Positions 24,205 to 44,761 of a DNA stretch of 64,000 nt are shown here, in pieces. A program made the translations under genes and the position numbers. The DNA lies in sequence record NZ_CP072215.1; one strand, 5' to 3'. Positions within the stretch are counted from its first letter, which is position 1; each line of letters begins with the position of its first letter. Under the pieces are notes generated by a model. It ran no database searches. It had not been told where the DNA came from and saw nothing but the letters and a program-made list of their open reading frames with translations. Source of the DNA: a plasmid.

Positions 24205-24325
24205 TTGATATGCCGAAAAAAGGCTCAGAACTCAGATGGGGAATGACATCAAAAAAAAGGTCGGCTGACCAAAGACCTTCCCGATACAAAAAATGAAAAG
24301 GTCTTGAATCTAGCTGAAGAATAAA
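24205..24325. repeat. partial copy (3'-terminal ~120 bp) of repeat family A
   Basis: AAAAAAGGCTCAGAACTCAGATGGGGAATGA...GGTCTTGAATCTAGCTGAAGAATAA matches the 3' end of the 29973/33044/42146 elements. Ends 5 bp before the gene start. Confidence 0.6.
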
Positions 24326-24329
24326 TCAG

Positions 24330-24728
24330 ATGTTCAACTTAAATAATGCTAATATGGAAAATTTGATTACACAAATCAACAAAGAGAGATTGGTTAATAG
24401 CGACACAGCTCTTATGATGAAGGAATTATACTATTACGTGCCTTGTGAGTATTGGTATGACAAACAGGATAGGCTACGCACCGATATTGAGGGAAGGAAT
24501 ACCCCGATGTATATGTGCGAGTGCCCGACACTGGCAGCATGTATCCAATGGATGATACAGACTCGTGAATATACGTTTCAAACAGAACAAAACGTGGCGG
24601 TCTGGCATGTGGTTGTGAGGGCTGGAGATTATGTGTTGTATGACTCCGAAAGTAATGCGGACGCTTTTTGTTGTTTGGAAGAAGCATTGGAAAAAGCGGT
24701 ACAGGAGTGCATGGAGTTATTGTATTAA
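24330..24728 (+). CDS. hypothetical protein
   Basis: 132-aa ORF. Preceded by the family-A 3' fragment and followed by a strong terminator. Confidence 0.5.
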   Translation: MFNLNNANMENLITQINKERLVNSDTALMMKELYYYVPCEYWYDKQDRLRTDIEGRNTPMYMCECPTLAACIQWMIQTREYTFQTEQNVAVWHVVVRAGDYVLYDSESNADAFCCLEEALEKAVQECMELLY

Positions 24729-24732
24729 AATT

Positions 24733-24765
24733 AAAAAAAATCAGTCCCCGTGAAGGGGACTTTCC
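24733..24765. terminator. bidirectional rho-independent terminator (A8-AGTCCCC-GTGAA-GGGGACT-TT)
   Basis: 7-bp GC stem flanked by an A-run on one side and T's on the other. Serves the convergent 24330..24728 (+) and invertase (-) genes. Confidence 0.6.
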
Positions 24766-24840
24766 TATAATCTTGCTGAGAGGTGGAATTGCAGACGATC
24801 TTTGAGAATCATCTTTGAAGGATGGGCAGAGGTTTATTCG

Positions 24841-25437
24841 TTATTTGTTATTTTTGTTCTCGGATTTCAGCGCAATTCCATTCCTTCTTAATAGGCGATA
24901 TACTGTTCCGCTACTGCCTATGTTTAATATTTTCTGTATCTCCCTTACCGGCGTTCCGGATTCATAGAGTTGGATGCAGCTTTTCTGCTTGGCGATGTTG
25001 TTTTTGTTGATAAGTGTCTTTCTGCCGAATTTGACACCTTTTTCCTTGGCGATTCTTCTGCCTTCTTGGGTTCTCTCATAGATAAGGTCTCTTTCAAACT
25101 GAGCGAAAGCACCGAGAATGTTGTTCATCAGTTGGCCGATTGCGCCTTCCGTACTGATGTTGTCTTGCAGTGAGGTGAATTGGATGCCCCTATTCTTGAA
25201 ATCTTCCAATAGCGTAAGGATATTCTTCAGCGAACGGCCAAGCCGGTCCAGCTTATATACGACAAGTGTGTCGCCTTCCCGGAGAAAGCTCAGGCAGGCA
25301 TCCAGTTCCGGGCGGTTTTGTTGACGTCCGGTCATTTTCTCAGAGAAGATTTTCTCGCATCCGGCAGCCTTCAACGCTTCCAGTTGCATATCCAGATGTT
25401 GTTCCTTGGTGGAAACACGGGCATATCCTATTTTCAT
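24841..25437 (-). CDS. DNA invertase, Hin/Gin/Pin-type serine recombinase
   Basis: MKIGYARVSTKEQ (catalytic Ser), LDRLGRS motif, C-terminal Hin-like HTH (IGSSGTVYRLL); 198 aa. Confidence 0.9.
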   Translation of the reverse strand: MKIGYARVSTKEQHLDMQLEALKAAGCEKIFSEKMTGRQQNRPELDACLSFLREGDTLVVYKLDRLGRSLKNILTLLEDFKNRGIQFTSLQDNISTEGAIGQLMNNILGAFAQFERDLIYERTQEGRRIAKEKGVKFGRKTLINKNNIAKQKSCIQLYESGTPVREIQKILNIGSSGTVYRLLRRNGIALKSENKNNK

Positions 25438-25478
25438 CCTGTTTTCGTATTTAAATGTGTAATGAAGGTTTTAATTCT

Positions 25479-25808
25479 TCACTTTTTCAAATATGAAGAC
25501 ATTAATTCTTCATATTCCTCACGGCTGTATTGGTTGAACCCCTTTTGCTTCATTGCCAAAAGAAGCCTTTCCAGTTCTCCGATAGTCACTACCTGTTTGC
25601 CGATAACGGTAAATTGTTCCCATTCTCCCTTTTCGTTGAGCAGGTATTCCCGGTGTGCAAAACAGTAAAGAGAACCATCGATGTCATTCCGTTTCTGCCA
25701 TTGACGCAGGTGCTTCAAACTGGTGAAATCACGGGTGACAGTACGTGGAATGGGAACCAATACGTCAATTTCCATCTTGAATTTTATATTCTCTTCCGCT
25801 TCTCGCAT
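25479..25808 (-). CDS. hypothetical protein
   Basis: 109-aa ORF between the invertase and the RhuM pseudogene. Confidence 0.4.
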   Translation of the reverse strand: MREAEENIKFKMEIDVLVPIPRTVTRDFTSLKHLRQWQKRNDIDGSLYCFAHREYLLNEKGEWEQFTVIGKQVVTIGELERLLLAMKQKGFNQYSREEYEELMSSYLKK

Positions 25809-25824
25809 GGGTGATTAGCTTATT

Positions 25825-27107: not shown

Positions 27108-27110
27108 ATT

Positions 27111-27673: not shown

Positions 27674-27722
27674 TGGAAAGTGTGCAAATAACAGGTTATG
27701 TAGCGTATTCAAAAAAGATATT

Positions 27723-28505: not shown

Positions 28506-28517
28506 TAGGTAAACACA

Positions 28518-29870: not shown

Positions 29871-29972
29871 ATCGTTGTATTATGTTATCAAAAGTAATAA
29901 TTATTAGGATATTGGTAAGCATTTCTTCTGAAAAACTTTTTAAAGATATTGTTTTAAGATGACATACTGTGT

Positions 29973-30659
29973 TTTTGCGTTCACGCAGTATTCTTTCCCA
30001 CCCTCCCCTTCATCGGAATGACTGTTCTCATTTCCGGTTTACCCGTAGTCATCCGCTATGCGGCTGATTATGGGCAAACCAGAAAAGAGAAGTTCCAAAC
30101 GTGGGCGGGATTGCAATGGTCATCATCCGGAGCTTCGGCATTGCCGAAACAACCTCCTTCTTCCGTATTGCAGCCCCGTCCTTTTACCGTTTGTCCCGGC
30201 AGTCCGTTGCTAACCCGTTCCCCCCTGCCACTTGTGGCAGGGAGATAGGAATACGGTTTTGCAGGCAAAACCGTATGGCTTGTTTTACTTTCCGTACTGC
30301 CCTTTTCCTAGTTTTCTGCCTCCCTTAATGTGCGTTTTTCATAGCCCCATCTGAGACCCTTTGTTTTTGAACGGCAAATTTATTTCGGTGGATGGATACG
30401 AAAGAGTTCCGGTCTTCGCCCTTTGTCCCGAAAAAAATAACGCCGGACGGCTTCGCTGTCCCCAACATTTTTTGTCGTCCAAAACTTTTCTTAATCCCTC
30501 CTTCCTTATTGTTGTGTGCCGTAAAAAAAAGGCTCATAAACTCAGATGGGGCATGAAAGCTCAAAAAAAAAGTCGGCAGAAAGAAAAGGCCATCCCGGAA
30601 AGGGGTTTTAAAAAAAGGTCTTTAAATCTAGCTGAAGCATAAAATTAGAAGTTTAACAA
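29973..30659. repeat. repeat family A, copy 1: ~690-bp hairpin-rich non-coding element ending 20 bp before a gene start
   Basis: Near-identical to 33044..33711 and 42146..42833. Starts TTTGCGTTCACGCAGTATTCTTTCCCACCC, ends TCTAGCTGAAGCATAA(AATTAGAAGTTTAACAA). Confidence 0.85.
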
Positions 30660-30678
30660 TCCCAAAAAACAACGAGTT

Positions 30679-31158
30679 ATGTCACGAGTACACTATTTAG
30701 AAGGAGATTATGAACAGTTAGTTATTAATGAAACGATAGACGGTCTTTTTTCCAGTTATCGTATAGACCGCAATTCATTGCCAAAAGGATTTTTCCTTTA
30801 TGAGATTAGATGGGATGACAGCTTATCTTCATTGGCAGAGATTAGCCCCTCTGTGGTGGTGAATCATGCAGGTTCATTCATTACAAAGTCACCCCTTGAA
30901 TTTGATGCAAACAATAGCATACGGATAACCTATACCAATTTTATCGAGTTCTGCCAGTTTGGTGAGTGGGCTTATGAGAAACTGGCTGTATTGGATTGTA
31001 ATTCCGGTAATGTTGCGGTGATAAGCCCAGACAGGAGATTGCAGACCACTGAAGAGATTGAGATTTTTTTGAGTGGGCATTGTGGCTATCATCTGAGTGA
31101 GATTAATTGGATGGTGATGAAAGGCGATGTGCTGTTTTTGAACGAGAACGATTTTTAA
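30679..31158 (+). CDS. hypothetical protein
   Basis: 159-aa ORF; first gene after A copy 1. Confidence 0.5.
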   Translation: MSRVHYLEGDYEQLVINETIDGLFSSYRIDRNSLPKGFFLYEIRWDDSLSSLAEISPSVVVNHAGSFITKSPLEFDANNSIRITYTNFIEFCQFGEWAYEKLAVLDCNSGNVAVISPDRRLQTTEEIEIFLSGHCGYHLSEINWMVMKGDVLFLNENDF

Positions 31159-31214
31159 TGAGTATAACCGTAACTGCCTCTTGGAATGGGGCAATTACAT
31201 AAAATATTATAAGT

Positions 31215-31478
31215 ATGAAGTGGATAGATAAGATGGTAGAACGCATTACCCGAAAAGAAACTGCTTTAAATGACCACTTTTGTGTAAATCGGCATACGGT
31301 TGTATGTCAGAGTGGTATGACTGATTATGTTTCTGTAACGATTGATAATACCGATGGTTTTGATTTCGATTTTTGGACAAAACAACTTTGTTTTGAGAAG
31401 GACTGTAAATATCGCTCGGAGATAAAAGCGGCTTTTGATAAAATCTATGGCACAAGGAATATAGAATGTTGTGAATAA
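31215..31478 (+). CDS. hypothetical Cys-containing small protein
   Basis: 87-aa ORF. Confidence 0.4.
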   Translation: MKWIDKMVERITRKETALNDHFCVNRHTVVCQSGMTDYVSVTIDNTDGFDFDFWTKQLCFEKDCKYRSEIKAAFDKIYGTRNIECCE

Positions 31479-31493
31479 TGAAGTCAGAAAAGT

Positions 31494-32219
31494 ATGATAC
31501 CAAAGGAGATAATGAAACTTTATGAAAAGCTTGCTTTCAGTCGGGGATATGAAGAAGCCTTTCGGGATTTTTTGGATGTTTGTCTTTACTATTTGTCTGT
31601 CGGGATGTTGGCGGAGGATTATCGTAGAGTGGAAAAAAGATATAAGCCATATGAAATGGAACTTTTTGTTCAAATGTTTTATAGGGTGTCTGAATATTCG
31701 GAAGGATTTTGCGATGTCTTGGGAGATATGTTCATGGAGTGTGTCAGTCATGGGAATAACGGACAGTTCTTTACCCCGATACACGTTGCTGATTTGATGG
31801 CATGTATGGGGGGAAATAGGCTGAAACCTAAACAGTCGGTCTGTGATTCGTGCTGTGGTTCCGGCAGGATGCTACTTTCCGCTGTAAAAAAATGTGCGGA
31901 AGAGAATGATGGAGGAAGGCTTTTTTGTTATGGCTCGGATATAGATTTGATTTGTGTAAAGATGACCGTTGTCAATCTGATGATGAATAGCGTACCCGGT
32001 GAAGTCGCATGGATGAATACATTGACAATGCAGCATTGGAGAAGTTATCATATAGATTTACAGCTGATAGCCGGAGTATGGTTGCCTATTTTAAAGATAA
32101 CGGAAGCAGGTGACACTTCTTTTATTAGGAAACTTGAAAATGCAATGGAGGATAATTCTGAATTGAAGAGGTCGATTCAGAGCAACGCAAGGGCTACGCA
32201 GCTGACTTTTGATTTTTGA
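31494..32219 (+). CDS. SAM-dependent N6-adenine DNA methyltransferase-like protein, short, with degenerate motif IV
   Basis: Motif X GQFFTPIHVADLM and motif I VCDSCCGSGRML present. NSVP sits at the position of catalytic (D/N)PP(Y/F). No target-recognition domain; 241 aa. Confidence 0.55.
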   Translation: MIPKEIMKLYEKLAFSRGYEEAFRDFLDVCLYYLSVGMLAEDYRRVEKRYKPYEMELFVQMFYRVSEYSEGFCDVLGDMFMECVSHGNNGQFFTPIHVADLMACMGGNRLKPKQSVCDSCCGSGRMLLSAVKKCAEENDGGRLFCYGSDIDLICVKMTVVNLMMNSVPGEVAWMNTLTMQHWRSYHIDLQLIAGVWLPILKITEAGDTSFIRKLENAMEDNSELKRSIQSNARATQLTFDF

Positions 32220-32248
32220 CAAGATAAATATGTAAAAAGGATTTTGGT

Positions 32249-32572
32249 ATGAAAGCAATAAGAACAAAAGAGGTGAATGAGAACGTCAAAGCGGCGAACA
32301 GTTGTTTGCGTAAAGCGAAATGGCAGGCTAAGGAATTGGCTGTTTTTACAGGTGAAGTAGTGCGTCTGATGGATAAGGAAGGGCATTCTCTACAAGGGTT
32401 CTTTAATCGGGTGGAGTTTGTTCTGGTGGACGGCACTATTAAATTCCGTGTAGTTATAAATCCTATTCTTGAATGTGAGAACTGTATAATGGCTTCTTGC
32501 CATGAAGACTATCTTTATGAGGTGGTCTCGGTGGAAAAGTTTACCTATAAAAATTATAGGTATCATTTGTAA
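32249..32572 (+). CDS. hypothetical protein
   Basis: 107-aa ORF. Confidence 0.4.
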   Translation: MKAIRTKEVNENVKAANSCLRKAKWQAKELAVFTGEVVRLMDKEGHSLQGFFNRVEFVLVDGTIKFRVVINPILECENCIMASCHEDYLYEVVSVEKFTYKNYRYHL

Positions 32573-32925
32573 TGATATTGTATTTTAATGATTATAAACT
32601 GATTTATATTATAACAATGATGGGCAAAATTAATAATATTCCCGTTTTGAATGAAGATGTTATTCGTTTGGTTGTACTCAATGAGGAAATTATTGGGTAT
32701 ATCTATCCACGAAGGACTTCTTATGTGGTGGCATTGGAGATAAAGCCGGGACGTACTACCTCTTTGGCTACATCTGTCAATAAACAATGCATGGTTTTGT
32801 TGAGTGATAAGGTTCGTTTGGCCACGGAACAGGATTTCGATGATTTTCATATATGCTTTGATGGTTTCAGAAATAACACTATGTATTGTTATAATCAGGG
32901 AACGGAACCTATATACCTTCAATGA
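32572..32925 (+). CDS. hypothetical protein
   Basis: 117-aa ORF; start uncertain. Confidence 0.35.
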   Translation: MILYFNDYKLIYIITMMGKINNIPVLNEDVIRLVVLNEEIIGYIYPRRTSYVVALEIKPGRTTSLATSVNKQCMVLLSDKVRLATEQDFDDFHICFDGFRNNTMYCYNQGTEPIYLQ

Positions 32926-32976
32926 AGCACATTCTCCCTTCTTTTGGATTAGGGAAGGGAGGGTATTTTGCTGTCC

Positions 32977-33009: not shown

Positions 33010-33043
33010 AAAAAACGCTTGGAGTTACTGGTAATCCCATTAA

Positions 33044-33711
33044 TTTGCGTTCACGCAGTATTCTTTCCCACCCTCCCCTTCATCGGAATGACTGTTCTCA
33101 TTCCCGGTTTACCCGTAATCATCCGCTATGCGGCTGATTATGGGTAAACCGGAAAAGAGAAGTTCCAAACGTGGGCGGGATTGCAATGGTCATCATCCGG
33201 AGCTTCGGCATTGCCGAAACAACCTCCTTCTTCCGTATTGCAGTCCCTTCCTTTTACCGTTTGTCCCGGCAGTCCGTTGCTAACCCGTTCCCCCCTGTCA
33301 CTTGTGGCAGGGAGATAGGAGTATGGTTTTGCTTGCAAAACCGTATGGCTTGTTTTACTTTCCGTACTGCCCTTTTCCTTGTTTTCTGCCTCCCCTAATG
33401 TGCTTTTTTCATAGCTCCATCTGAGAGCCTTTGTTTTTGAACGGCAAATTTATTTCGGTGGATGGATACGAAAGAGTTCCGGTCTTCGCCCTTTGTACCG
33501 AAAAAAATAACGCCGGACGGCTTCGCTGTCCCCAACATTTTTTGTCGTCCAAAACTTTTCTTAATCCCTCCTTCCTTATTGATGCGTGCCGTAAAAAAAA
33601 GGCTCATAAACTCAGATGGGGCATGAAAGCTCAAAAAAAAAGTCGGCAGAAAGAAAAGGCCATCCCGGAAAGGGGTTTAAAAAAAGGTCTTTAAATCTAG
33701 CTGAAGCATAA
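33044..33711. repeat. repeat family A, copy 2
   Basis: Near-identical to copy 1. Ends 26 bp before the ATG at 33737. Confidence 0.85.
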
Positions 33712-33736
33712 GTTTAATTTTAATAGATAAAAGACT

Positions 33737-34919: not shown

Positions 34920-35054
34920 TTCAGATTGTATATCGTTGTTTTCCAGCGGTATGATCAAACGTGGCGATGTCATACTGTCTGGTTGCTGTAAGTGCTAATA
35001 CTTCCGATGCAAAAGAGAAAGACACAATAAATATGAAAAGCAATGATAGATGAA

Positions 35055-36418
35055 TTTTACTTAATTGTTTTACCTTTGTAAAACATTAGTGTCCCATTAA
35101 AATTGGGACGAATTAAAAATTAAATAAACTTGGCCCATTTGGTCCGAATCGTTCTTTGTCATTTTGAAATTTAGTTTTATCAAAGAGGTCTCTCAGATGA
35201 GTCTTATCAGTCAATGAGATGCTCAGTATTTGTAACACTTCATATGTACTTCTGTTCAGTTGCATATCGTGTTGAATGATTGCCACCAAACAGTAAGCGC
35301 ATATAGCAGCATATATCTGTATTCGAACAGCATTCTCTGTAGTTCCCCAAAATCTTTTGATTTTAAGGTGCTGCTTGAGCCATTTGAAAAACAGCTCTAC
35401 CTGCCAGCGATTTTTATAAAGTTCAGCAACTTGAAGCGCAGATATATGCATCGCATTGGTTATGAATGTAAATTCTCGTTCTTGTTCTTCATCCCAATAT
35501 TTAACCAATCTAAGTGGCTCTGGATAATATTGTTTAGGATAGAATCCTGTCAGAAATACACTTGCGTCTGAAAGCACATTCTTAGGCAGCCTACGTTTCC
35601 ATTGGATGGATTTGTACCCGAGATTCTTTTTTGCTCTGACAACAAAGTAGGCTTCAATTTGATGAATTTTATACAGTATTTTGAAGTTGTTATAACCGCG
35701 GTCAAAGATGTAATAAGAGCTTGGTTCATAAGGAATTTCAATCATAACTTTAGAATCGTGTACGGATGCTTCCGTGATATGAAAGAATGCAGGAATCTGT
35801 GTTTCCACATCATATAATGTATGCACTTTGATACCACCTTTCTTTTTGCGGAATTTTGCCCACCAAAAGACTGAAAGGCACAGGTCAATAGTAGTCGAAT
35901 CGAAAGCATAAACGTTACCGCCAAGTTTGAAAATATGATTAGCACACTTTTGTCGTGCTTCGCTAACCAGGTAGTAAGCATATTCTTCAAAGATGTGATA
36001 GTCTCTATCTTGATTTGCTCTTGCCAGCGATGACTTTGATACATTTTTACCCATTCCTAAATGATAACATTTGGAATGATGAGCTTCAAGAGCAACTATC
36101 AAATCTCGCAGACTTTCACGATTAGAAAGTTGACCAAACATCAAAGCAAGTAGTTGATTCCAGCAGGTGAAGTGCTTCACATATTTATCACCATCATACT
36201 TGGTGACTATGCGGTTAAACTTACTTCGATTCAGAAATGAAGCCAATTGAGCGAAAACGTATTTGTCTTGGAACATATGCCATCGGATTAATCTGATGCA
36301 AAGCTACAAATTCAAGTCCGTTCGCTCGGAAAATCGCTGTAACTAACTAAATTTCAAATATTTCAAAGAACTCTTTTAGATTTTAATGGGACAACAATGT
36401 TTGTAAAAGGTAAAACAA
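35055..36418. mobile_element. IS4-family insertion sequence (~1.36 kb) with ~38-bp imperfect terminal inverted repeats
   Basis: Left end TTGTTTTACCTTTGTAAAACATT-AGTGTCCCATTAAAAT; right end is its reverse complement with 3 mismatches. Single transposase ORF inside. Confidence 0.7.
35113..36276 (-). CDS. IS4-family DDE transposase
   Basis: 387 aa. Conserved C-terminal YKNRWQVELFFKWLKQHLKIK block. Confidence 0.85.
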   Translation of the reverse strand: MFQDKYVFAQLASFLNRSKFNRIVTKYDGDKYVKHFTCWNQLLALMFGQLSNRESLRDLIVALEAHHSKCYHLGMGKNVSKSSLARANQDRDYHIFEEYAYYLVSEARQKCANHIFKLGGNVYAFDSTTIDLCLSVFWWAKFRKKKGGIKVHTLYDVETQIPAFFHITEASVHDSKVMIEIPYEPSSYYIFDRGYNNFKILYKIHQIEAYFVVRAKKNLGYKSIQWKRRLPKNVLSDASVFLTGFYPKQYYPEPLRLVKYWDEEQEREFTFITNAMHISALQVAELYKNRWQVELFFKWLKQHLKIKRFWGTTENAVRIQIYAAICAYCLVAIIQHDMQLNRSTYEVLQILSISLTDKTHLRDLFDKTKFQNDKERFGPNGPSLFNF

Positions 36419-36712
36419 TATGCGTTTTTCAGATACAGAGAACAATATGACCTTTTGCATAGGTGTGTGTTGGTTAGGAACTCCAAATATGGAGTCGTTG
36501 CAGAAAATAATGATGAACTTGAATATTATTGATAAGGATGGAAACAATGGAAGCTAATGAACTGATGCGATATGCCTATGAATTACTGCAAGGGCATTCG
36601 AATGAAGAATGTGCCCGAATATTAAGAGAAGTGGTGGCCGAGTGTCAGGTGTGTATAAAGAACTGTGAAGAAGGTGTTTTCGAAAATATGCTAAAGTAAT
36701 AACAACAAGAAT

Positions 36713-37162
36713 ATGGAAATTACTCATAAAAATCAAGGAGAACTTGACTCAACCATGCTCCCATTCGTGATGAGAGAGCTGGTAGAACTGGTCATGAAGA
36801 AAAAGGCATTGCCTTTAGGCGATGCACTGTATTATATATATTCTTCCAAGTTGTATAAATCTTTGCTGGATAAGAGTACCAAGTTATGGTATTCAAGTAC
36901 ATTGTCGCTTTATGAAACATTGGAGAAGGAAAAAACAGAAGAAAAACGACGGTATAACGGTGACACGAAGATCCTGCTTTTCAAGATGTTCTGCATTGAG
37001 AATTATAGGGAGGAAAAGAAACAAAGTGCGGAAGAAACCTTGTTGTTGTTTTCGGACTATGGGGTTTTTGATTTTTTGGATGAGACTTTTGAAATGCTTC
37101 ATACCCAAGACCCCGAATATATATTAGATACTATAACGACTTATATCAATAAAAGAAAATGA
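36713..37162 (+). CDS. DUF3791-like protein
   Basis: 149-aa ORF. 4-nt overlap with the downstream gene, the known DUF3791/DUF3990 pairing. Confidence 0.45.
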   Translation: MEITHKNQGELDSTMLPFVMRELVELVMKKKALPLGDALYYIYSSKLYKSLLDKSTKLWYSSTLSLYETLEKEKTEEKRRYNGDTKILLFKMFCIENYREEKKQSAEETLLLFSDYGVFDFLDETFEMLHTQDPEYILDTITTYINKRK

Positions 37163-37641
37163 GACTATTTCATGGATCTACAGTTACCGTGAAACGCCCT
37201 AATATACAGAAAGGACGGAAGGCTACGGACTTTGGGAAGGGATTTTATACGACAACCAACTTTGAACAAGCAAAAAAATGGGCTTTGTTGAAGAAGAACA
37301 GGGAACAGAGCGAAAAAGCAATCGTCTCTGTTTATGAAGTTCCCGATGATATTCTTGATAGGGAATATCCGGTTCTTCGGTTTATGGGTGCAACAAAAGA
37401 ATGGCTGGAGTTTGTTGTCAACAACCGCAGAGGAAGAGAAAACGGTGACTATGACCTAATAATGGGGCCTGTCGCAAATGACCAGTTATATGCGACAATT
37501 CGGCTTTATGAACAGAGAGTTGTTACGGCTGAAGCCGCTATTGAGATGCTGAAAGCGCATAAGTTGTTCAATCAGCTTTCATTTCATACGGTAACAGTCG
37601 CTTTGTTGTTGAAGTTTGTTGAATCAATTGAAGTGGGGTAA
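37159..37641 (+). CDS. DUF3990-like protein
   Basis: MRLFHGSTVTVKRPNIQKGRKATDFGKGFYTT N-terminus typical of DUF3990. Confidence 0.5.
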   Translation: MRLFHGSTVTVKRPNIQKGRKATDFGKGFYTTTNFEQAKKWALLKKNREQSEKAIVSVYEVPDDILDREYPVLRFMGATKEWLEFVVNNRRGRENGDYDLIMGPVANDQLYATIRLYEQRVVTAEAAIEMLKAHKLFNQLSFHTVTVALLLKFVESIEVG

Positions 37642-37694
37642 AGAATATGTGAAGTGAAAATAGGGGGAAGTTTATCCCCCAATGGTAAGGTTGT

Positions 37695-38905
37695 TTTTTG
37701 CGTCCACTTAGTTTTTTCCCACCCACCCTTTCAGCGGAGTGACTGCCCGGCAGTCTGTTGCTTACCCATATGTCCTAGCCTTTTAGGGCTGTAGATAGGT
37801 AGTTGGATATTTCGCTGCCAAATCGGCAGTCCGCTTCAATCGTTTGCTTGCTTTTCTCCGAGTGGAGCCTTTCTGCTTTTCCGGTGGTGTAATCTTCTTT
37901 TATTGGAAACAGGTGTAGTGGCTGTATGCCTGTGTGGTTATGTTCTCCCGCAGAATCCGCAAGTCAGTTCTTCCGTTGCAGCTTTTCATTTTATCGTGCA
38001 GTCACTTTTTTCGATACGTGGAATATGATATGCTTCATTCTTCGGCTTCATTTTTTTAAAAGGAATTGCAGATGTTTCTTCCGGTGTGTCGATAGGCGGC
38101 TGACCATCTTTTCGGGATGTGCCATGCTTGCTGTCTAACCGGTTGTTTTTTGCATCCTTTCCAAACCTGTTACTGATTTTCAAGTTTTGTCTTTTTCATA
38201 TCATTTTTTAGGGAAGTCAAATCATTTTCCGTTGCAAATATAGATTGTTGCTAACCCCTTTTACGGGGATAAGGGGACGATTCACAAACACCACGTTGTT
38301 ATTCGTCTGAAATCTTCCTTTTTTTGCCTTGCACAAAAAGCGTATTTAACCCGAATTATTCGTTGCCATCTTCACCAATAAAAAAGTTACAAATCTTCCT
38401 TTTTCCGGCCAGCATAAAAAGAGTATTTATATCTTTTTTCATGGTGTCCCCCAAAGCCAACAATCAGTTATTGCACTGTAAAATTGATTAATTAACTTCT
38501 AAAAAATCAGAGATATGAAAAAGATTGAAAATTCATTCGCAGTAACAGGCAGGATTTGTAGGGATGCAGAAATCCATTTATTCGAAATAGTAAAGGTTGC
38601 ACACTTCTCTATTGTGGTCAGTCGCATAGGCAAGATAAATGAAGAAAAAACATTTGTTTCCTCTGTTATGAAAGTTGAAGCCTAGAGTAAGATGGAAGAC
38701 CGCTATGCTTTTTGGATACTGCAAAAAGATGTACTGATTACCGTTGAAGGCTACTTTAAGCCGGAAGAATGGACGGATTCTAAAAGTGGGGAGAAACGTA
38801 ACCGCATTGTGATGGTAGCTACTAAGTTCTACCCGACTCCGGAAAAATAAGAACCCCCGGACTAAAAAGAAAAAGCAATCAAACGATTGAAGCGGCACAA
38901 GGTCG
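37695..38905. repeat. segmental duplication, copy 1: family-B structured element + ssb-leader region + decayed ssb (deletion variant)
   Basis: Near-identical to 40735..42105 apart from an internal ~120-bp deletion and the decayed ssb. Confidence 0.75.
38520..38852 (+). pseudogene. ssb-like gene copy with in-frame stop and multiple substitutions
   Basis: Aligns with 41699..42097 but carries a TAG (GAAGCCTAGAGT) and divergent codons. Not present as an ORF in the track. Confidence 0.6.
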
Positions 38906-39019
38906 CTTCAATCGTTTGCTAATGCGGCAGAAGATTATAAAAAAAGTGTTTCTTAATTTGGTGATTTTCAGATTTATCGGTATTTTTGTATCAAAAATGA
39001 TACCTAAATATGTTTTTCT

Positions 39020-39358
39020 ATGAAAAGATTATATGATACATATACAATATACGAATTTTCAGATGAATGTATTGTAAAGGAAATCTGCAAGAGAGTTAAG
39101 TCTATAAGACTTAGCTGCTGTTTTTCCCAGCAAGAATTTGCGGATAAGGCAGGAGTATCTATCGTTACTATTAAGAGAATAGAATCTTGTAAAGTAAGTG
39201 ATATTGCCCTAAGTACATTGCTTAAGATTTTGCGTATAAGTGGAACTCTTGAAGGCGTTGTCGGTTTGGTTCCGGAACTTCCAGACTCCCCTTTCCTAAT
39301 CAATGAAAAAACAGGTAAAAGAATACAAAGAATTAACGGTAAACGTAAGATGGTATGA
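39020..39358 (+). CDS. hipB: HipB-like XRE-family HTH protein
   Basis: FSQQEFADKAGVSIVTIKRIESCK HTH. 4-nt overlap with the hipA-like gene. Confidence 0.6.
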   Translation: MKRLYDTYTIYEFSDECIVKEICKRVKSIRLSCCFSQQEFADKAGVSIVTIKRIESCKVSDIALSTLLKILRISGTLEGVVGLVPELPDSPFLINEKTGKRIQRINGKRKMV

Positions 39359-40632
39359 AGAAAGAGCCGATTATAGTGAATGTATATCTGTGGGGGACTT
39401 GCATTGGCAAATTGAATTGGGACTTTGAAAAGCATTGTTCTGTATTCCAATTTACGGATGAATATAGGAAACAAGATTATGATATATGCCCTTCCACACA
39501 CCCTAAGAGAACCCCTTTGTTTGCGTCTTTCTATGGGAATAAAGATAAATTATATCAAGGGCTTCCGGAATTTCTTGCAGATGCGCTTCCTGACAAATGG
39601 GGGGCTTCCCTATTTGACCAATGGCTCACGGATAATAATATAAAGGTTACGGAATCATTGCCTCTATTGAAGCTCTCTTATATTGGCAAGAGGGCTATGG
39701 GAGCATTGGAATTTGAACCGGAATTTAATGATGATGCCATCCATGAGTCAGTAAATATGTCATCATTGGCAACTTTGGCTTCTAAAATATATAATGATCG
39801 AGATGCTGCTGTCATATCACCGGAGGATAGCCTCACGATGAAAAAGTTGATATATCTTGGAACTTCTGCCGGTGGCATGCGCCCGAAGGCAGTGATTGCC
39901 TATAATCTCGAAACGGAAGAGTTTCGTTCCGGCCAGGTGGATTTGCCTGAAAATTTTAAGCAGTATATCATCAAATTTAAAGAAGCAGATGACTCTCCTA
40001 CCACAGAGATAGAAATGGTATATAGCGAAATGGCAAAGGCGGCGGGAATCAACATGATGCCATGCTTCCTGAAAGAAATTGATGGAAGAAATCATTTCGT
40101 AACGGAAAGATTTGATCGTAAGAATGGAGAAAAGCTCTTTAGTCAGACCCTTGCGGCCATTATGCCGGGTGCAGATGATTATATGAAGCTGTGTTGGATA
40201 GCAGAGACTCTGAAACTTCCCCAGGAAGACAAAGATCAGATATTTATCAGAATGGTATTTAATTATGTCGCAGGTATATCCGATGATCATAATAAGAACA
40301 TATCGTTTATCATGGATAAGGCAGGGGTATGGCGTTTATCACCTGCATATGATGTAATGTTCACGGCAAATACATGGGAAAATTCTTCAGCACACATTCA
40401 TTCGATGGGCGTGATGGGCAAAAGGTCTGCCTTGACTACAAGTGATTTCGTCAACTTTGCCGAGGATTTTGTAGAGGAGCCCGAAAAGAAGATATTACAG
40501 GTGTTCGATGCTGTAAGCAAATTTCAATCGTTATGCGCCACGTATGGCATAGATAAGGCTATATTTGATAAAATCCAACATGTATTGGATGGATTGGTCA
40601 CTGATGATTTGGATTTGCTGCAATTAACTTAA
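39355..40632 (+). CDS. hipA: HipA-family kinase toxin (second copy, canonical length)
   Basis: 425 aa. Catalytic loop ISDDHNKNISFIMD and TERFDRKNGEKL motif. ~40% identical to 382..1971. Confidence 0.8.
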   Translation: MKKEPIIVNVYLWGTCIGKLNWDFEKHCSVFQFTDEYRKQDYDICPSTHPKRTPLFASFYGNKDKLYQGLPEFLADALPDKWGASLFDQWLTDNNIKVTESLPLLKLSYIGKRAMGALEFEPEFNDDAIHESVNMSSLATLASKIYNDRDAAVISPEDSLTMKKLIYLGTSAGGMRPKAVIAYNLETEEFRSGQVDLPENFKQYIIKFKEADDSPTTEIEMVYSEMAKAAGINMMPCFLKEIDGRNHFVTERFDRKNGEKLFSQTLAAIMPGADDYMKLCWIAETLKLPQEDKDQIFIRMVFNYVAGISDDHNKNISFIMDKAGVWRLSPAYDVMFTANTWENSSAHIHSMGVMGKRSALTTSDFVNFAEDFVEEPEKKILQVFDAVSKFQSLCATYGIDKAIFDKIQHVLDGLVTDDLDLLQLT

Positions 40633-40734
40633 AGAACAGTAGATGGTGATAGTTGCTCCAGTCTTTTCTGGAACGGCTTTCTTTTCTTTTGAGATCTTTA
40701 TACCCCTATTTGTTATTTTGGAGAAAGTCACATG

Positions 40735-42105
40735 TTTCCCACCCACCCTTTCAGCGGAGTGACTGTCCCCGTTTCAGGATTTCTCATAGTCACTCGCAGG
40801 CTCCGTGATTGTGTGAAATCCAGGAATGGGGAAGGCAAAGGAGAGAGGCATATCCGGTCTGCTTTCGGAGCTTCGGCCACATCGAGACAACCTCTTTCCG
40901 GCGGCTATGCCACTCTCCTTTTATTTGCCCGGCAGTCTGTTGCTTACCCATATGCCCCAGCCTTTTAGGGCTGTATATAGGTAGTCGGATATTTCGCCGC
41001 TAAATCGGCAGTCCGCTTCAATCGTTTGCTTGCTTTTCTCCGAGTGGATGCCTTTCTGTTTTTCCGGTTGTATAATCTTCTTTTTCCGGAAACAGTTGTA
41101 GTGGCTGTATGCCTGTATGGTTATGTTCTCCCCGCAGAATCCGCAAGTCTGTTCTTCCGTTGCAGCCTTTCATTTTATCGTGCAGTCACTTTTTTCGATA
41201 CGTGGAATATTGTATGCTTCATTCTTCGGCTTCATTTTTTTAAAAGGAATTGCAGAGGTTTCTTCCGGTGTGTCGATAGGCGGCTGACCATATTTTCGGA
41301 ATGTGCCATGCTTGCTGTCTGACCGGTTGTTTTTTGCATCCTTTCCAAACCTGTTGCTGATTTTCAAGTTTTGTCTTTTTCATATCATTTTTTAGGGAAG
41401 TCAAATCATTTTCCGTTGCAAATATAGATTGTTGCTAACCCCTTTTACGGGGATAAGGGGACGATTCACAAACACCACGTTGTTATTCGTCTGAAATCTT
41501 CCTTTTTTTGCCTTGCATAAAAAGCGTATTTAACCCGAATTATTTGCTGCCATCTTCACCAATAAAAAAGTTACAAATCTTCCTTTTTCCGGCCAGCATA
41601 AAAAGAGTATTTATATCTTTTTTCATGGTGTCCCCCAAAGCCAACAATCAGTTATTGCACTGTAAAATTGATTAATTAACTTCTAAAAAATCAGAGATAT
41701 GAAAAAGATTGAAAATTCATTCGCAGTAACAGGTTTTATCGGTAAGGATGCAGAAATCCGTAGTTTTGAAACAGCAAGCGTAGCACGCTTTTCTATCGCG
41801 GTCAGCCGTGCAGACAAGACAGGTGAAGAAACCTCTTATGTTTCCGCTTTCATGGGGATTGAAGCCTGGAGAAAGAATGAAGCACTGGATTCCTTCGATG
41901 TATTGAAAAAAGGTGAGCTGATAACCGTTGAAGGCTACTTTAAGCCGGAAGAATGGACGGATTCTAAAAGTGGGGAGAAGCGTAACCGCATTGTGATGGT
42001 AGCCACCAAGTTTTATCCGGCTCCGGAAAAAGAAGAAGAAAAACCGGATCAGCCTAAACAGAAGGCTGTCTCTAAAAAGAAAAAAGCAAGCAAATGATTG
42101 AAGCG
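40735..42105. repeat. segmental duplication, copy 2: family-B element (full length) + leader + intact ssb
   Basis: See 37695..38905. Its family-B element retains a segment homologous to family A (GGAGCTTCGGCCACATCGAGACAACCTC). Confidence 0.75.
41699..42097 (+). CDS. ssb: single-stranded DNA-binding protein (OB-fold, conjugative-element type)
   Basis: FAVTGFIGKDAEIRSF...ARFSIAVSR...WRK...GELITVEGYFKPEEWTDSKSGEKRNRIV pattern and acidic/K-rich tail. Confidence 0.7.
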   Translation: MKKIENSFAVTGFIGKDAEIRSFETASVARFSIAVSRADKTGEETSYVSAFMGIEAWRKNEALDSFDVLKKGELITVEGYFKPEEWTDSKSGEKRNRIVMVATKFYPAPEKEEEKPDQPKQKAVSKKKKASK

Positions 42106-42145
42106 GCCTAGTGCCGCTTTTTTTTGCTACATATCCGAGAGTGTT

Positions 42146-42833
42146 TTTGCGTTCACGCAGTATTCTTCCCCACCCTCCCCTTCATCGGAATGACTGTTCT
42201 CATTCCCGGTTTGCCCGTAGTCATCCGCTATGCGGCTGATTATGGGCAAACCAGAAAAGAGAAGTTCCAAACGTGGGCGGGATTGCAATGGTCATCATCC
42301 GGAGCTTCGGCATTGCCGAAACAACCTCCTTCTTCCGTATTGCAGTTCCTTCCTTTTACCGTTTGTCCCGGCAGTCCGTTGCTAACCCGTTCCCCCCCTG
42401 TCACTTGTGGCAGGGAGATAGGAATACGGTTTTGCAAGCAAAACCGTATGGTTTGTTTTACTTTCCGTACTGCCCTTTTCCTTGTTTTCTGCCTCCCCTA
42501 ATGTGCTTTTTTCATAGCTCCATCTGAGATCCTTTGTTTTTGAACGGCAAATTTATTTCGGTGGATGGATACGAAAGAGTTCCGGTCTTCGCCCCTTTGT
42601 CCCGAAAAAAATAACGCCGGACGGCTTCGCTGTCCCCAACATTTTTTGTCGTCCAAAACTTTTCTTAATCCCTCCTTCCTTATTGTTGTGTGCCGTAAAA
42701 AAAAGGCTCATAAACTCAGATGGGGCATGAAAGCTCAAAAAAAAAGTCGGCAGAAAGAAAAGGCCATCCCGGAAAGGGGTTTTAAAAAAAGGTCTTTAAA
42801 TCTAGCTGAAGCATAAAATTAGAAGTTTAACAA
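42146..42833. repeat. repeat family A, copy 3
   Basis: Near-identical to copies 1 and 2. Ends 19 bp before the ATG at 42852. Confidence 0.85.
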
Positions 42834-42851
42834 ACTAAGTAGCAGAAGTAT

Positions 42852-43043
42852 ATGCAAATCATTCAATTTGTTTTTTCGGTCATCATCGCTCTTTGTGCAG
42901 TGGCTATGTTTGTCGGAGCGGTAATAACGCCAAGTCCGATAAAGGTTGTGTCGGTTACGTTGTTGGCTCTTATTTGCCTATTCTCCTTGTTTCTCGTGAA
43001 ATTGGCTTATTGTGAAATGAAATCTAAAAATGATATACTATGA
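42852..43043 (+). CDS. small hydrophobic membrane protein
   Basis: 63 aa, two TM helices. 4-nt overlap with the PcfK-like gene. Confidence 0.35.
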   Translation: MQIIQFVFSVIIALCAVAMFVGAVITPSPIKVVSVTLLALICLFSLFLVKLAYCEMKSKNDIL

Positions 43044-43450
43044 AAGTGTCAGAACAATTTAAAAGTACCATCAAGGCATACCTTGATAATATGGCAGCGG
43101 TGGATAGTCTGTTTGCTCCAGTCTATCAAAAACCTACAAAGAATATAGATAATTGCATTACCTATATTTTAAACCAAGTGAAGAAAAGCGGTTGCTGTGG
43201 TTTTAGTGATGATGAAATTTTTGGTATGGCGTTGCACTATTATCAGGAAGATAATATTGAGGTGGGTAGCCCATTGAAATGTAATGTAGTCGTAAATCAT
43301 CATGTTGAATTGTCAGAGGAAGAAAAGAAAGCGGCTCGTGAGGCTGCTATCAAAAAATTGCAGGAGGAAGAATTGGCAAAGTTGAAGAAGCGTCAACAAG
43401 CTAAACGTGAGAACAACACCGAAGTACAAACCCAGTTAACTCTTTTTTGA
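43040..43450 (+). CDS. PcfK-like protein
   Basis: 136 aa with a charged C-terminal coiled region. Directly precedes the PcfJ-like gene with a 2-bp gap, as in Bacteroides CTns. Confidence 0.55.
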   Translation: MKVSEQFKSTIKAYLDNMAAVDSLFAPVYQKPTKNIDNCITYILNQVKKSGCCGFSDDEIFGMALHYYQEDNIEVGSPLKCNVVVNHHVELSEEEKKAAREAAIKKLQEEELAKLKKRQQAKRENNTEVQTQLTLF

Positions 43451-43451
43451 T

Positions 43452-44699
43452 ATGAAACCCAAGACAAAATTACAAATGGAAATCGTGAATGGGAGCAGGA
43501 AGTTAGCTCCCGTTTCAGAGGCTCAAAAGCGTTATGCCTATAAACATTGCTTTGTGCATTATTTCAAGCGTGATGCAAAGGGGAATTGCTTTTGTTTGGA
43601 TTGTGGGCATACATGGCGGGATAAGGAAGATAAGAAAAACTGTAAATGTCCTCATTGCGGTATGAACCTGAAATTGGAGAATAGCAGGAAAAGGACGGCT
43701 GTATATAAAGAATATTTTTGTGTGATTACTACATACAAGCAATATCAAGTTATCCGTTTTTTTATGGTGGACTGCCGGCTGAAAAAAGGGTCTCCGGCTA
43801 ATTACTTTATAATTGAGGCGGTACAGTGTTGGATGAATAAAGAGGGCAAGACAGAAACGCTGTCTTTGCTGCGGGGCATGTCTATATTTTATTACGATGC
43901 ATGGATATATGGAAGTTCTTTGGAATTGCGTAAGCGGAATGTGCATCATGACCGTATTTATGATATTTGCCCGGCAGTTATCTATCCGAGAATGAAAGTG
44001 ATACCCGAACTTACGAGGAATGGATTTAAGGGTGCCTTTTATGATATTTGTCCGAGTTCCTTCTTTATGACATTATTAACTGATAATCGGATGGAGATAT
44101 TATATAAGGCAGGGCAAATGAATTTGTTCTTGAGATTTTTAGAGAGAAAATACGGTATAGATAAGTATTGGACGTATGTAAAAATCTGTTTAAGACATGA
44201 CTATGTGATACATGATGCGGACTTGTGGCTGGACTATGTGGATATGCTGATAGAAAATAAATTGGATGCGAGAAATCCTCATTATTTGTGTCCGTTGAAT
44301 GTAGAAGAAGCGCATGATTGGGTGATGGGGAAATGTAAGAAAAAATATTCTGAAAAGGATGAAAAAGACTATATTGCTGCCAAATCACGTTTCTTTAATC
44401 TTTCGTTTGCGGATGGAAATATTATGGTTCGGGTATTGGAAAGCCTTTCGGACTTTTACAAAGAGGGAAAGTTGCTGCATCATTGTGTATTCAGCAACGC
44501 CTATTATAAGAGAGAAGATTCGTTGATAATGTCGGCAACGGTGGATGGAAGGCGCATGGAAACGGTGGAGTTTTCACTTAGCAGGATGGAGGTGTGCCAG
44601 TGTCGTGGAAAGTCTAACCAATTATCAGCCTATCATGACCGGATTCTGAATTTGGTACGGGATAATATACCGTTGATAAGGGAAAGGATGGTAGTGTAA
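43452..44699 (+). CDS. PcfJ-like protein
   Basis: 415 aa. N-terminal Cys4 ribbon CFCLDCGHTW...CKCPHCG, then a conserved large domain. Confidence 0.6.
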   Translation: MKPKTKLQMEIVNGSRKLAPVSEAQKRYAYKHCFVHYFKRDAKGNCFCLDCGHTWRDKEDKKNCKCPHCGMNLKLENSRKRTAVYKEYFCVITTYKQYQVIRFFMVDCRLKKGSPANYFIIEAVQCWMNKEGKTETLSLLRGMSIFYYDAWIYGSSLELRKRNVHHDRIYDICPAVIYPRMKVIPELTRNGFKGAFYDICPSSFFMTLLTDNRMEILYKAGQMNLFLRFLERKYGIDKYWTYVKICLRHDYVIHDADLWLDYVDMLIENKLDARNPHYLCPLNVEEAHDWVMGKCKKKYSEKDEKDYIAAKSRFFNLSFADGNIMVRVLESLSDFYKEGKLLHHCVFSNAYYKREDSLIMSATVDGRRMETVEFSLSRMEVCQCRGKSNQLSAYHDRILNLVRDNIPLIRERMVV

Positions 44700-44706
44700 T
44701 GAATAG

Positions 44707-44761
44707 CCCACACATCTAAATGTGTGGGAGTTCTTTTTTGGAAGACGCCCAAAAAAGAACC
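44707..44761. terminator. tandem hairpins: CCCACACA-TCTAAA-TGTGTGGG, then palindrome GTTCTTTTTTGG-N7-CCAAAAAAGAAC
   Basis: Begins 8 bp after the PcfJ-like stop. Second hairpin is the third copy of the 13-bp-arm palindrome family. Confidence 0.5.

Follow-up and report, generated by a model that had tools for sequence, protein, structure and literature searches.

The array of genes analyzed here is composed of co-oriented modules, each headed by a repeated element whose conserved part is a long hairpin with a promoter box on its antisense strand. We consider it probable that this array is an establishment or anti-defence island and that each of its operons is headed by a single-stranded-DNA (ssDNA) promoter, a functional analogue of Frpo/ssi. 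The window, i.e., the whole stretch of 64,000 nucleotides that was analyzed, is the reverse complement of the 76-kb gut Bacteroidales conjugative plasmid NZ_CP059857.1, and strands are given in the sense of the window. The modular architecture of the original prediction is real: the window contains six element-headed modules, all in the same orientation, four with an A-type head (one of them diverged) and two with a B-type head (Table 1).

Table 1. Elements, modules and neighboring features in the window
Feature	Coordinates	Strand	Description
Serine recombinase	11920-12558	+	PF00239 and HTH_7
A0, diverged A-type core hairpin	24043-24329	-	Box AACCTTTG, 1 mismatch; heads a 132-aa ORF (24330-24728)
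Serine recombinase	24841-25437	-	Resolvase PF00239 and HTH_7
A1, 5' part	29970-30339		Several hairpins, including one with 32-bp arms (30025-30091) and a terminator-like one on the + strand (30251-30276); not conserved in other plasmid lineages
A1, core	30340-30678	-	Long imperfect hairpin; -7 box TAAATTTG at 30382-30375, in internal loop
Module 1	30679-32964	+	LPD28 protein, 87-aa ORF, orphan N6 DNA methylase (31494-32219), 107-aa and 117-aa ORFs
A2 element	33040-33736	-	Core 33410-33736; box 33452-33445
Module 2	33737-37680	+	PRTase-like 188-aa protein, SLOG/YpsA protein, small ORF, DUF3791, DUF3990; interrupted by IS4
IS4 copy	~35084-36399	-	Transposase 35113-36276 (strand given for the transposase); 9-bp target duplication
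B1 element	37695-38514	-	A-like 5' end; core 38173-38514; box TATATTTG at 38242-38235
Module 3	38515-40632	+	ssb pseudogene 38515-38850 (in-frame stop), hipB 39020-39358, hipA 39355-40632
B2 element	40735-41698	-	Core 41356-41698; box 41426-41419
Module 4	41699-42128	+	ssb 41699-42097 and intrinsic-terminator-like hairpin 42100-42120
A3 element	42142-42851	-	Core 42513-42851; box 42555-42548
Module 5	42852-44728	+	63-aa membrane-like ORF 42852-43043, PcfK-like 43040-43450, PcfJ-like 43452-44699
Terminator-like hairpins at module ends	32931-32964, 37663-37680, 38880-38918, 42100-42120, 44707-44728
tra-side context	45338-63979	-	Toprim protein, T4 coupling protein, SSB, ArdC, Bacteroidota-type T4SS genes; converge on the island

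Family A comprises three copies of ~680-710 bp with ~97% identity, and family B comprises two copies that are ~96% identical across 773 bp and reach the ATG of ssb; both B copies begin with an A-like 5' end. Within the window, the A and B copies are all directly repeated, and the cores keep a single orientation across all the related plasmids examined. An ATG lies directly at the end of every element, as had been predicted, and this holds for A3, which abuts an unannotated 63-aa ORF overlapping pcfK. The supposed partial A fragment at 24205 proved to be a full A-type core that has diverged (A0; nhmmer match 24043-24359, E = 5e-37), with compensatory changes in the alignment. Between plasmid lineages that are ~75% identical, conservation of the A and B elements is limited to their 3' ~330 nt; the 5' 370-450 nt of each element are lineage-specific. 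The ~690-bp repeat that was first read as a leader does exist, but its conserved part is the hairpin with an antisense-strand promoter box, which that description had missed.

On the '-' strand of the core, we observed an invariant Bacteroidota -7 box (TAnnTTTG) in an internal loop of the gene-distal arm. The TA and TTTG nucleotides are retained in 13-14 of the 14 A cores and in all five B cores, with AA, CC, TA or AC at the two free positions. The loop is asymmetric: its side opposite the box presents 10 different strings among the 14 A-core sequences and, consequently, the duplex form carries no sense-strand box. Neither the A and B elements nor the stretches from A1 and A2 to their first ATG contain an exact '+'-strand box, and no clear -33 TTTG was found at the canonical spacing (19-21 nt) from the antisense box. 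The same geometry, with the box in the 3' arm of the '-' hairpin and then TTTGC(N2-6)AAAA(A), is shared by four classes of elements: A, B, C (Prevotella-like contigs) and D (a CTnDOT-like ICE), the last two differing in sequence from the first two. An internal loop contains or adjoins the box, and in classes A and B the box lies inside a pre-opened one.

Alternatively, the box could be an ordinary duplex promoter that fires leftwards, the 5' part of each element being transcribed into a non-coding or antisense RNA that might, for example, control the upstream module or serve as a replication primer, and the hairpin could have a separate role, for instance as an ssi-type primase or primosome loading site for the toprim protein, which is encoded beside the island. 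The box is indeed the canonical Bacteroidota -7 box, and the pattern formed by the A-core box and its downstream sequence is also found immediately 5' of the start codon of rpsL in Ferruginibacter, a real promoter context that counts in favor of the ssDNA-promoter reading as well. In duplex DNA, such a box should be active in the leftward direction, which the ssDNA-promoter reading does not account for. However, the '-' strand region past the box is not conserved between lineages and contains no conserved ORF, and the A1 and A2 operons would then be left with no recognizable promoter. A leftward promoter also leaves unexplained why the box is always found in the same hairpin arm, in or beside an internal loop with a freely varying opposite side, and why the first ATG is invariably where the hairpin stops. 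We regard this scenario as unlikely.

The hairpins stand out from the rest of the sequence. In a DNA-fold scan of the whole window (300-nt sliding), A and B elements accounted for six of the eight stretches with a GC-corrected z-score of -2.8 or below, including the lowest one, and the fold of A1 yielded z-scores of -6.7 to -10.3 relative to shuffled sequences. Across 14 distinct A cores, 96.9% of the cells are paired and eight pairs present double changes; the observed values were reached in none of 500 shuffles, and slid controls were 46-58% paired. Compensatory changes were found in 19 of the 117 pairs of the B alignment. The covariation is modest because independent lineages are few (~3-4 per class). 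The B cores fold much better on the '-' strand (Alifold: -71.6 on '-' vs -45.3 on '+' with RNA parameters, -28.0 vs -16.6 with DNA parameters), with a difference in MFE of 7-10 kcal/mol between strands. For the A-type cores, no strand asymmetry was detected when each strand was folded independently.

This equal folding of the A-type cores on the '+' strand is also what could be expected if the elements were structured 5' leaders, i.e., cis-regulatory RNAs of '+'-sense mRNAs transcribed from an upstream duplex promoter and controlling translation or stability. The position of the conserved hairpin immediately before the ATG and the RNA fold of A1 (z-score of -8.5) are consistent with this possibility, but the much weaker '+'-strand folding of the B cores is not. 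In addition, no '+'-strand -7 box lies within or upstream of A1 and A2, and the A elements contain a terminator-like hairpin before the core. A leader would not predict an invariant antisense TAnnTTTG with free central nucleotides in four unrelated sequence classes. Finally, searching Rfam 15 with the whole window returned no match at the gathering score, and at E <= 1 just chance hits to miRNA hairpins. Overall, we view structured leaders as quite improbable.

The ssDNA-promoter reading can be formulated as follows. During conjugation, the '-' strand of the window, which serves as template for every module gene, would be the one transferred into the recipient. There, the ~330-nt cores of the A and B elements would each fold back on themselves, so that the gene-distal arm displays the sigma-ABfr -7 box (TAnnTTTG) as the non-template strand and the gene-proximal arm serves as the template. 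RNA polymerase is predicted to initiate within the hairpin, ~155 nt (A) or ~40 nt (B) upstream of the ATG, which would place the '+'-sense RNA starts at ~30523-30527 for A1 and at ~38474 for B1. Transcription would proceed into the genes ahead of complementary-strand synthesis, and the transcripts might additionally prime this synthesis, as has been proposed for Frpo. Once in the duplex state, the operons would become silent or weakly expressed because no box occurs at the corresponding place on the sense strand. The '+'-strand terminator-like hairpin found within A, 5' of the core, would act as the element's own insulator against read-through from the preceding module.

The identity of the transferred strand is suggested by the MOBP-type relaxase operon (NikA-like and MobA/VirD2-like), whose transcription is directed away from the putative oriT. 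Combined with the relaxase-last rule (PMC11541004), this orientation points to the '-' strand as the transferred strand and, thus, as the strand from which the seven element-headed modules of the whole plasmid would all be transcribed. The window also encodes a second relaxase (17609-18556), from which transfer of the opposite strand would be predicted. The main MobC/relaxase pair and the putative oriT are located ~2 kb past the right end of the window (18438-20577 of the record), and the island lies 21-36 kb from the putative oriT, with T4SS genes in between. One further A-headed module is found at what would be the last-transferred end of the plasmid. Since the island stands behind the T4SS genes and this additional module at the last-transferred end, these modules do not form a classical leading region. 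Not all co-oriented genes are preceded by such an element; RadC at 22.7 kb is among those that lack one.

Based on Pfam and annotation, the island encodes an orphan methylase, SSB twice, HipBA and an AcrIIA9-family PcfK; for the PcfK-like protein of module 5, the AcrIIA9 family annotation is carried by a fused homologue. ArdC adjoins the island, inside the tra block. The modules do end in terminator-like hairpins, but these do not constitute the single palindrome family that had been proposed: they share no common sequence, except for the two that follow the duplicated ssb. The presence of an IS4 copy inside one module was borne out, and its absence from an otherwise 99%-identical plasmid of B. 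thetaiotaomicron indicates a recent insertion.

We observed that modules differ among related plasmids and that the breakpoints fall at the borders of the elements, which is what the proposed comparison across strains and metagenomes was expected to reveal. Two metagenomic contigs, L055 and L056, share their sequence (99.9% identity) through the last base of an A core, beyond which they carry PcfK/PcfJ versus DUF2958 and other genes; their identity resumes (99.5%) ~590 bp before the next B core begins, a position that we took as the start of the next element. A P. dorei plasmid lacks positions 35066-40804 of the window, which correspond to the IS4, DUF3791/3990 and the B1 unit with the ssb pseudogene and hipBA. 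The B. fragilis lineage presents an altered module order and a duplicated B-ssb unit on both sides of a DUF2958 module. A single core was found to head at least six different first genes, and no inversions were seen among the relatives. These patterns are most simply explained by a cassette behavior in which modules are swapped, lost and duplicated at element borders through homologous recombination, as originally suggested. The shared elements of 0.7-0.9 kb would constitute portable homology for such exchanges, deletions and duplications, and breakpoints at the ends of long homology fit the expectation for homologous recombination. Nothing was found to implicate the recombinases or the IS in module shuffling.

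Several near-identical copies on one replicon and mosaic 5' parts could also be produced by non-autonomous, MITE-like repeats that multiply on the plasmid and occur at gene starts only by coincidence. This is very unlikely: we saw no terminal inverted repeats or target duplications, the copies all point the same way and each stops precisely at a start codon, and homologues occur solely in Bacteroidales conjugative-element contexts. The integron- or shufflon-like arrangement that had also been suggested, in which A and B would be the recombination sites and the neighboring serine recombinases the enzymes, is extremely improbable despite breakpoints at element borders and the two serine recombinases confirmed within 20 kb, since the repeats are 0.7-0.9 kb long, all direct and placed 5' of operons of two to five genes, no relative shows an inversion, short sites resembling attC or sfx were not seen, neither the scanned ORFs nor the CDSs annotated in the record include a tyrosine integrase, the breakpoints match the ends of long homology, and the serine-type enzymes adjoin RhuM or Fic genes and a transposon-like block, away from the variable end of the array.

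To our knowledge, ssDNA hairpin promoters have so far been described solely in E. coli-type plasmids. If the ssDNA-promoter reading extends to the related elements, Bacteroidota plasmids and CTnDOT-like ICEs would possess their own class of ssDNA promoters, consisting of large hairpins of the transferred strand that display the TAnnTTTG box, often in a pre-melted loop, and that fire anti-defence or establishment operons on entry and double as homology for cassette swapping in the gut. We see the chances of this broader proposal as evenly balanced.

By its shared features, the plasmid is apparently a relative of pMMCAT, a pervasive 98-kb Bacteroidales conjugative plasmid. Both carry a radical-SAM pair with an MBL-fold block, Mfa-like fimbrial genes, several toxin-antitoxin pairs and a putative anti-CRISPR, and both are spread over multiple species. 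In contrast to pMMCAT, our plasmid is 76 kb long and no eps locus was seen; the pMMCAT paper describes neither repeats nor single-strand promoters. As with integron cassettes, a structured repeat stands between the exchangeable gene units of the array, and its content varies on otherwise identical backbones. Unlike in integrons, however, the repeat is located 5' of the genes, is ~10 times the length of attC and carries a promoter box, the units contain one to five genes, each with its own terminator-like hairpin, and there is no IntI, attI or Pc. The single orientation of the copies likewise distinguishes the array from a shufflon.

The island resembles the leading-region anti-defence islands (Samuel et al. 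2024, PMC11541004) in its co-oriented orphan methylase, SSB, toxin-antitoxin, anti-CRISPR-like and many small genes of unknown function, and the putative transferred strand would be the template of all these genes. It differs in belonging to another phylum ("Bacteroid*" is absent from the text of that paper), in adding PcfK/PcfJ, LPD28, DUF2958, PRTase with SLOG and DUF3791/3990, and in lying outside the first ~30 ORFs after oriT.

A distant-mode blastn search of A and B against the 72,556 plasmids of PLSDB returned Bacteroidales records only and no sequence similarity to Frpo/ssi; this collection presumably holds many IncF/IncI plasmids. The A and B elements are longer than Frpo/ssi (0.7-0.9 kb, with a 330-nt core) and present the Bacteroidota TAnnTTTG -7 box instead of the sigma-70 -35/-10 hexamers, with no clear -33 element; in classes A and B this box lies in a pre-opened internal loop, and the island is situated behind the T4SS genes, away from oriT. 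In spite of these differences, both A/B and the Frpo/ssi elements of F, ColIb-P9 and pESBL (IncF/IncI1) are large imperfect stem-loops in the template strand of the downstream operon, and in both the folded-back arm supplies host promoter elements, which for A and B is predicted from the sequence. Both are expected to be inactive as duplex DNA, and both are repeated before several operons with ssb, methylase and anti-restriction genes (PMC11541004, PMC12672017), with six hairpin-promoter operons described in pESBL (PMC12672017).

The window represents the reverse complement of plasmid pla1 from Bacteroides zhangwenhongii HF-5287 (NZ_CP059857.1, 76,094 bp, circular), and record coordinates equal 86461 minus the window coordinates (prefix w). 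It is a member of a conjugative plasmid family (70-125 kb) found in Bacteroides, Phocaeicola and Parabacteroides, and element A is common to 18 PLSDB records. The plasmid has in common with pMMCAT a radical-SAM pair with an MBL block, Mfa-like fimbrial genes, several toxin-antitoxin pairs and a putative anti-CRISPR; the published pMMCAT paper makes no mention of the repeats. The stretch that carries a second MobC/relaxase pair, together with two AraC regulators, an MBL-fold hydrolase and a "radical SAM mobile pair", adjoins a serine recombinase and looks like an inserted mobilizable unit. The same block has also been described for pMMCAT. The region with this block lies between two direct copies of a 108-nt sequence, which are 94% identical and 16.5 kb apart.

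The proposed architecture of repeat-headed modules was confirmed for the A and B copies: every element ends at the ATG of a first gene. Terminator-like hairpins are present at the module ends, where a palindrome family had been noted. Family A comprises three copies of ~0.7 kb with ~97% identity; A3 adjoins an unannotated 63-aa ORF overlapping pcfK, and a further A-headed module (DUF2958) lies beyond the window. Family B is a ~0.8-kb leader that forms, with ssb, a duplicated 1.15-kb unit. The ssb copy after B1 is interrupted by an in-frame stop here but intact, with 116 aa, in the B. thetaiotaomicron plasmid CP103120. The "partial A fragment" of the original prediction at 24205 is A-type sequence as claimed, but it is a complete, diverged core rather than a fragment. 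Among the eight stretches of the 64 kb that scored as most structured in a 300-nt sliding DNA-fold scan, six were A/B elements; fold z-scores for A1 were -6.7 to -10.3. Another strongly structured stretch (GC-corrected z = -3.2) lies at the head of the transfer region, between a cNMP-binding Crp/Fnr-type regulator and a Bro-N gene.

Coordinates of features in the window and in related records
Feature	Location	Strand or remark
Complete diverged A core	w24043-24359	
Near-perfect 32-bp-arm hairpin, 5' part of every A element	w30025-30091, 33095-33161, 42197-42263	
Variant of this hairpin, 5' part of B2	w40757-40830	
Terminator-like hairpin with T-rich tail inside each A, just upstream of the core	w30251-30276, 33321-33346, 42424-42449	+
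ssb copy after B1	w38515-38850	
Inverted ssb-end copies, first pair	w41010-41090 and 42022-42109	73% over 89 nt
Inverted ssb-end copies, second pair	w37831-37855 and 38871-38895	96% over 25 nt
Deletion breakpoints, P. dorei plasmid	w35065, w40805	
Putative inserted mobilizable unit	w12800-20000	
Second MobC/relaxase pair	w17609-18945	
108-nt direct repeat	w4016-4123, w20557-20664	
Structured stretch, head of transfer region	w62501-62950	
Orphan N6 methylase, two ssb copies, HipBA, DUF3791/DUF3990, PRTase-like protein + SLOG, LPD28, PcfK/PcfJ		gene content of modules
Toprim protein, coupling protein, SSB, ArdC, Bacteroidota-type T4SS	right of island	-
Main MobC(NikA-like)/relaxase(MobA/VirD2-like) operon, AT-rich putative oriT	~2 kb past window's right end (relaxase at record 18438-19838)	
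Further A-headed module (DUF2958)	record 14.7-16.4 kb	
mobC-parA intergenic region	L001 20174-20576	
Class C elements	L052 7395-7845, 9522-9972	Prevotella-like contigs
Class D element	L060 8134-8506	Fermentimonas ICE
Fused PcfK-PcfJ ORF	L048 22007-23665	P. dorei CP126057
Ferruginibacter rpsL locus with A-core pattern	L038 7396-7425	plus about 25 other loci

The 5' part of every A element contains a hairpin with 32-bp arms. The B2 version has diverged in sequence yet remains self-complementary, which suggests that selection may act on the structure. Between this hairpin and the gene, the terminator-like hairpin inside each A would block read-through from the preceding module and thereby insulate the core. 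The 5' part of each B element also holds an inverted copy of the ssb 3' end with its terminator, which creates an inverted repeat spaced ~1 kb around the B core and ssb.

We compared the elements between plasmid lineages of ~75% identity (B. fragilis CP103159, P. vulgatus CP103198, B. uniformis pBUN1, B. mediterraneensis and others). With blastn and nhmmer, recovery was confined to the final ~330 nt of each family, and the 5' 370-450 nt are lineage-specific. The conserved core of both families is a long imperfect hairpin. Across 14 distinct A cores, standard pairs were observed in 96.9% of pair cells and both sides changed at 8 pairs; these values were reached by none of 500 column shuffles, and slid partners yielded 46-58% pairing. 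Compensatory changes affect 19 of the 117 pairs of the B alignment. The covariation is good, although not overwhelming because independent lineages are few. A shared alignment of Prevotella-type and Bacteroides B hairpins was dropped since MAFFT misaligned the shorter hairpin, and the Prevotella-type B hairpins were therefore analyzed separately. Rfam returned nothing relevant at the gathering score or at E <= 1.

Each core harbors an exact TAnnTTTG box on the '-' strand, antisense to the downstream genes. This sequence is reportedly the -7 promoter consensus of Bacteroidota (Bayley, Rocha and Smith 2000). TA and TTTG are kept in 13-14 of 14 A cores and in all five B cores across lineages, and the nn positions vary (AA, CC, TA, AC), a pattern that would be expected of a sigma-contact motif. 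A clear -33 element is missing. The predicted '-' strand fold places the box in the 3' arm of the hairpin for both families, inside an 11-12-nt internal loop in A and at a 5-7-nt loop in B; the last base or bases of the box are paired and the duplex beyond runs on to the ATG. The loop side opposite the box is free to vary (10 different strings in 14 A cores), so the sense strand of the duplex carries no box at the mirror position. Indeed, no '+'-strand box was found in any A/B element, nor from A1 or A2 to their ATG.

The same geometry was found in two further classes that are otherwise dissimilar. Class C heads two operons on Prevotella-like contigs, and class D heads the PcfK block of a Fermentimonas CTnDOT-like ICE; this block, like the other blocks headed by class C or D, converges on a tra operon. 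A short signature after the box, TTTGC(N2-6)AAAA(A), is common to A, B, C and D. This distribution hints that a hairpin with an antisense TAnnTTTG could be general in Bacteroidota conjugative elements. The hairpin-plus-box signature was not seen in other long intergenic regions (pBUN1 at 22301 and 23801, record L049 at 11446, RadC in the window, and records L058 and L059), and some co-oriented genes have no such element. A 25-nt pattern of the A core (TAnnTTTGCCGTnnAAAAAnAAAGG) recurs immediately before the start codon of rpsL (ribosomal protein S12) in about two dozen Ferruginibacter genomes, a position which shows what such a sequence presumably does in this phylum. These matches, about half of those in the genome-wide pattern scan, were rejected as core homologues and represent rpsL promoters.

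Counting G.T against A.C wobbles favored the '-' strand for both classes (A: 81 against 9), and this result was discounted as strand evidence because the structure had been predicted from that strand. When strands were folded independently, the B cores favored the '-' strand with RNA parameters (alifold -71.6 against -45.3 for '+'), with DNA parameters (-28.0 against -16.6) and by wobble cells (31 against 3); single-sequence MFE was 7-10 kcal/mol better on the '-' strand. Independent folding of the A cores revealed no strand preference (per-sequence MFE differences scatter from -4 to +6), so they are assigned to the '-' strand on the basis of the box, the loop asymmetry and the parallel with B.

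On balance, it seems moderately likely that the A and B cores are single-stranded-DNA promoters. The single-stranded '-' strand would fold back on itself, with the box in the non-template position and the gene-proximal arm as template. Transcription would begin ~5-7 nt beyond the box, opposite a T-run, and RNA polymerase would leave the base of the hairpin into the genes, producing a '+'-sense mRNA with a leader of ~155 nt (A) or ~40 nt (B). The predicted '+'-sense starts are at about w30523-30527, 33593-33597 and 42697-42701 (A) and w38474 and 41658 (B). Alternatively, it is possible that the box is an ordinary leftward promoter of duplex DNA. However, nothing downstream of the box is conserved, neither sequence nor ORF, and why the box keeps its place in the hairpin would be left unexplained. 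The '-' strand ORFs annotated by PGAP inside the elements (50-66 aa) were rejected as targets of the box: other lineages do not conserve them, and their strand differs from copy to copy. That the elements act as '+'-sense leader RNA is disfavored for B by its strand asymmetry, and this reading provides no promoter; nor would an antisense promoter box in each of four classes be expected from it.

The relaxase operon usually enters last, an arrangement relied on by Samuel et al. (PMC11541004). If this holds here, the '-' strand would be the transferred strand, and the template of all seven element-headed modules would therefore be the transferred strand. The second relaxase in the window would predict the opposite strand. 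No known nic consensus was recognized in the mobC-parA intergenic region, where inverted repeats are present, and a literature search returned nothing usable on Bacteroides oriT polarity. The T4SS genes separate the island from the putative oriT, at a distance of 21-36 kb, and one module is at the far end. The gene content of the modules fits an island of single-strand promoters. PcfK and PcfJ are 100% and 99% identical to their counterparts in P. dorei CP126057, where they form one fused 552-aa ORF annotated as "Cas9 inhibitor AcrIIA9 family protein". An NCBIfam scan of ten module proteins yielded just two weak sub-threshold matches, both for the methylase.

The comparison of module presence, absence and order across relatives was positive for the predicted exchange with breakpoints in the repeats. 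Over the stretch that ends with the last base of an A core, two metagenomic contigs (L055 and L056) share 99.9% identity; beyond it, one carries PcfK/PcfJ and the other DUF2958 and other genes. Identity resumes (99.5%) ~590 bp upstream of the next B core, a point that we took as the start of the next element. In the B. fragilis lineage, the order before the toprim gene is PcfKJ, ssb, DUF2958, ssb and PRT-SLOG, with the DUF2958 module between two B-ssb units; its P. vulgatus relative has a single B-ssb unit and lacks the DUF2958 module. A-type cores precede six or more different first genes. A P. dorei plasmid lacks 5.7 kb (IS4, DUF3791/3990 and B1-ssb'-hipBA), and we rejected this deletion as a clean repeat-junction event since its breakpoints do not lie at such a junction. 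All repeats are direct, no inversion was observed, and the junctions coincide with the limits of long homology. The simplest explanation would thus be homologous recombination, with the shared promoter elements as substrate, rather than action of the serine recombinases or IS. Both nearby recombinases are of the serine type, as originally predicted, and nothing was found to link them or the IS elements to module exchange. The IS4 copy inside a module is, as proposed, an insertion, recent and with a 9-bp duplication.

If true, this model would explain how the methylase, SSB, anti-CRISPR-like and unknown genes of pMMCAT-like plasmids, one of the most widespread plasmid families in the human gut, and of related ICEs are switched on before the duplex is formed. 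It would also explain the mosaicism of the island without a dedicated recombinase. Predictions at base level follow from the hypothesis for the box and its loop, for transcription start sites and for the strand. The hairpin could serve as a handle for new anti-defense genes, namely whatever comes after it, and offers a possible design rule for engineering Bacteroides with entry-specific expression.

The principle of single-strand promoters is already known from enterobacterial plasmids. Bacteroidota RNA polymerase uses a different promoter grammar. In the literature surveyed, single-strand promoters and zygotic induction have been characterized for enterobacterial IncF/IncI plasmids only, and full-text searches found no description of such promoters in Bacteroidota. 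In pESBL, six leading-region operons, each behind a large stem-loop of one of three sequence classes, are induced in transconjugants and thought to be inactive as duplex DNA (PMC12672017). The logic proposed for the A/B cores is the same as that of Frpo/ssi of F and IncI1 plasmids. In contrast to these enterobacterial promoters, the A/B elements are unrelated in sequence and present the promoter grammar of another phylum, with a box predicted to lie in a pre-opened loop and elements that would double as recombination homology for cassette exchange.
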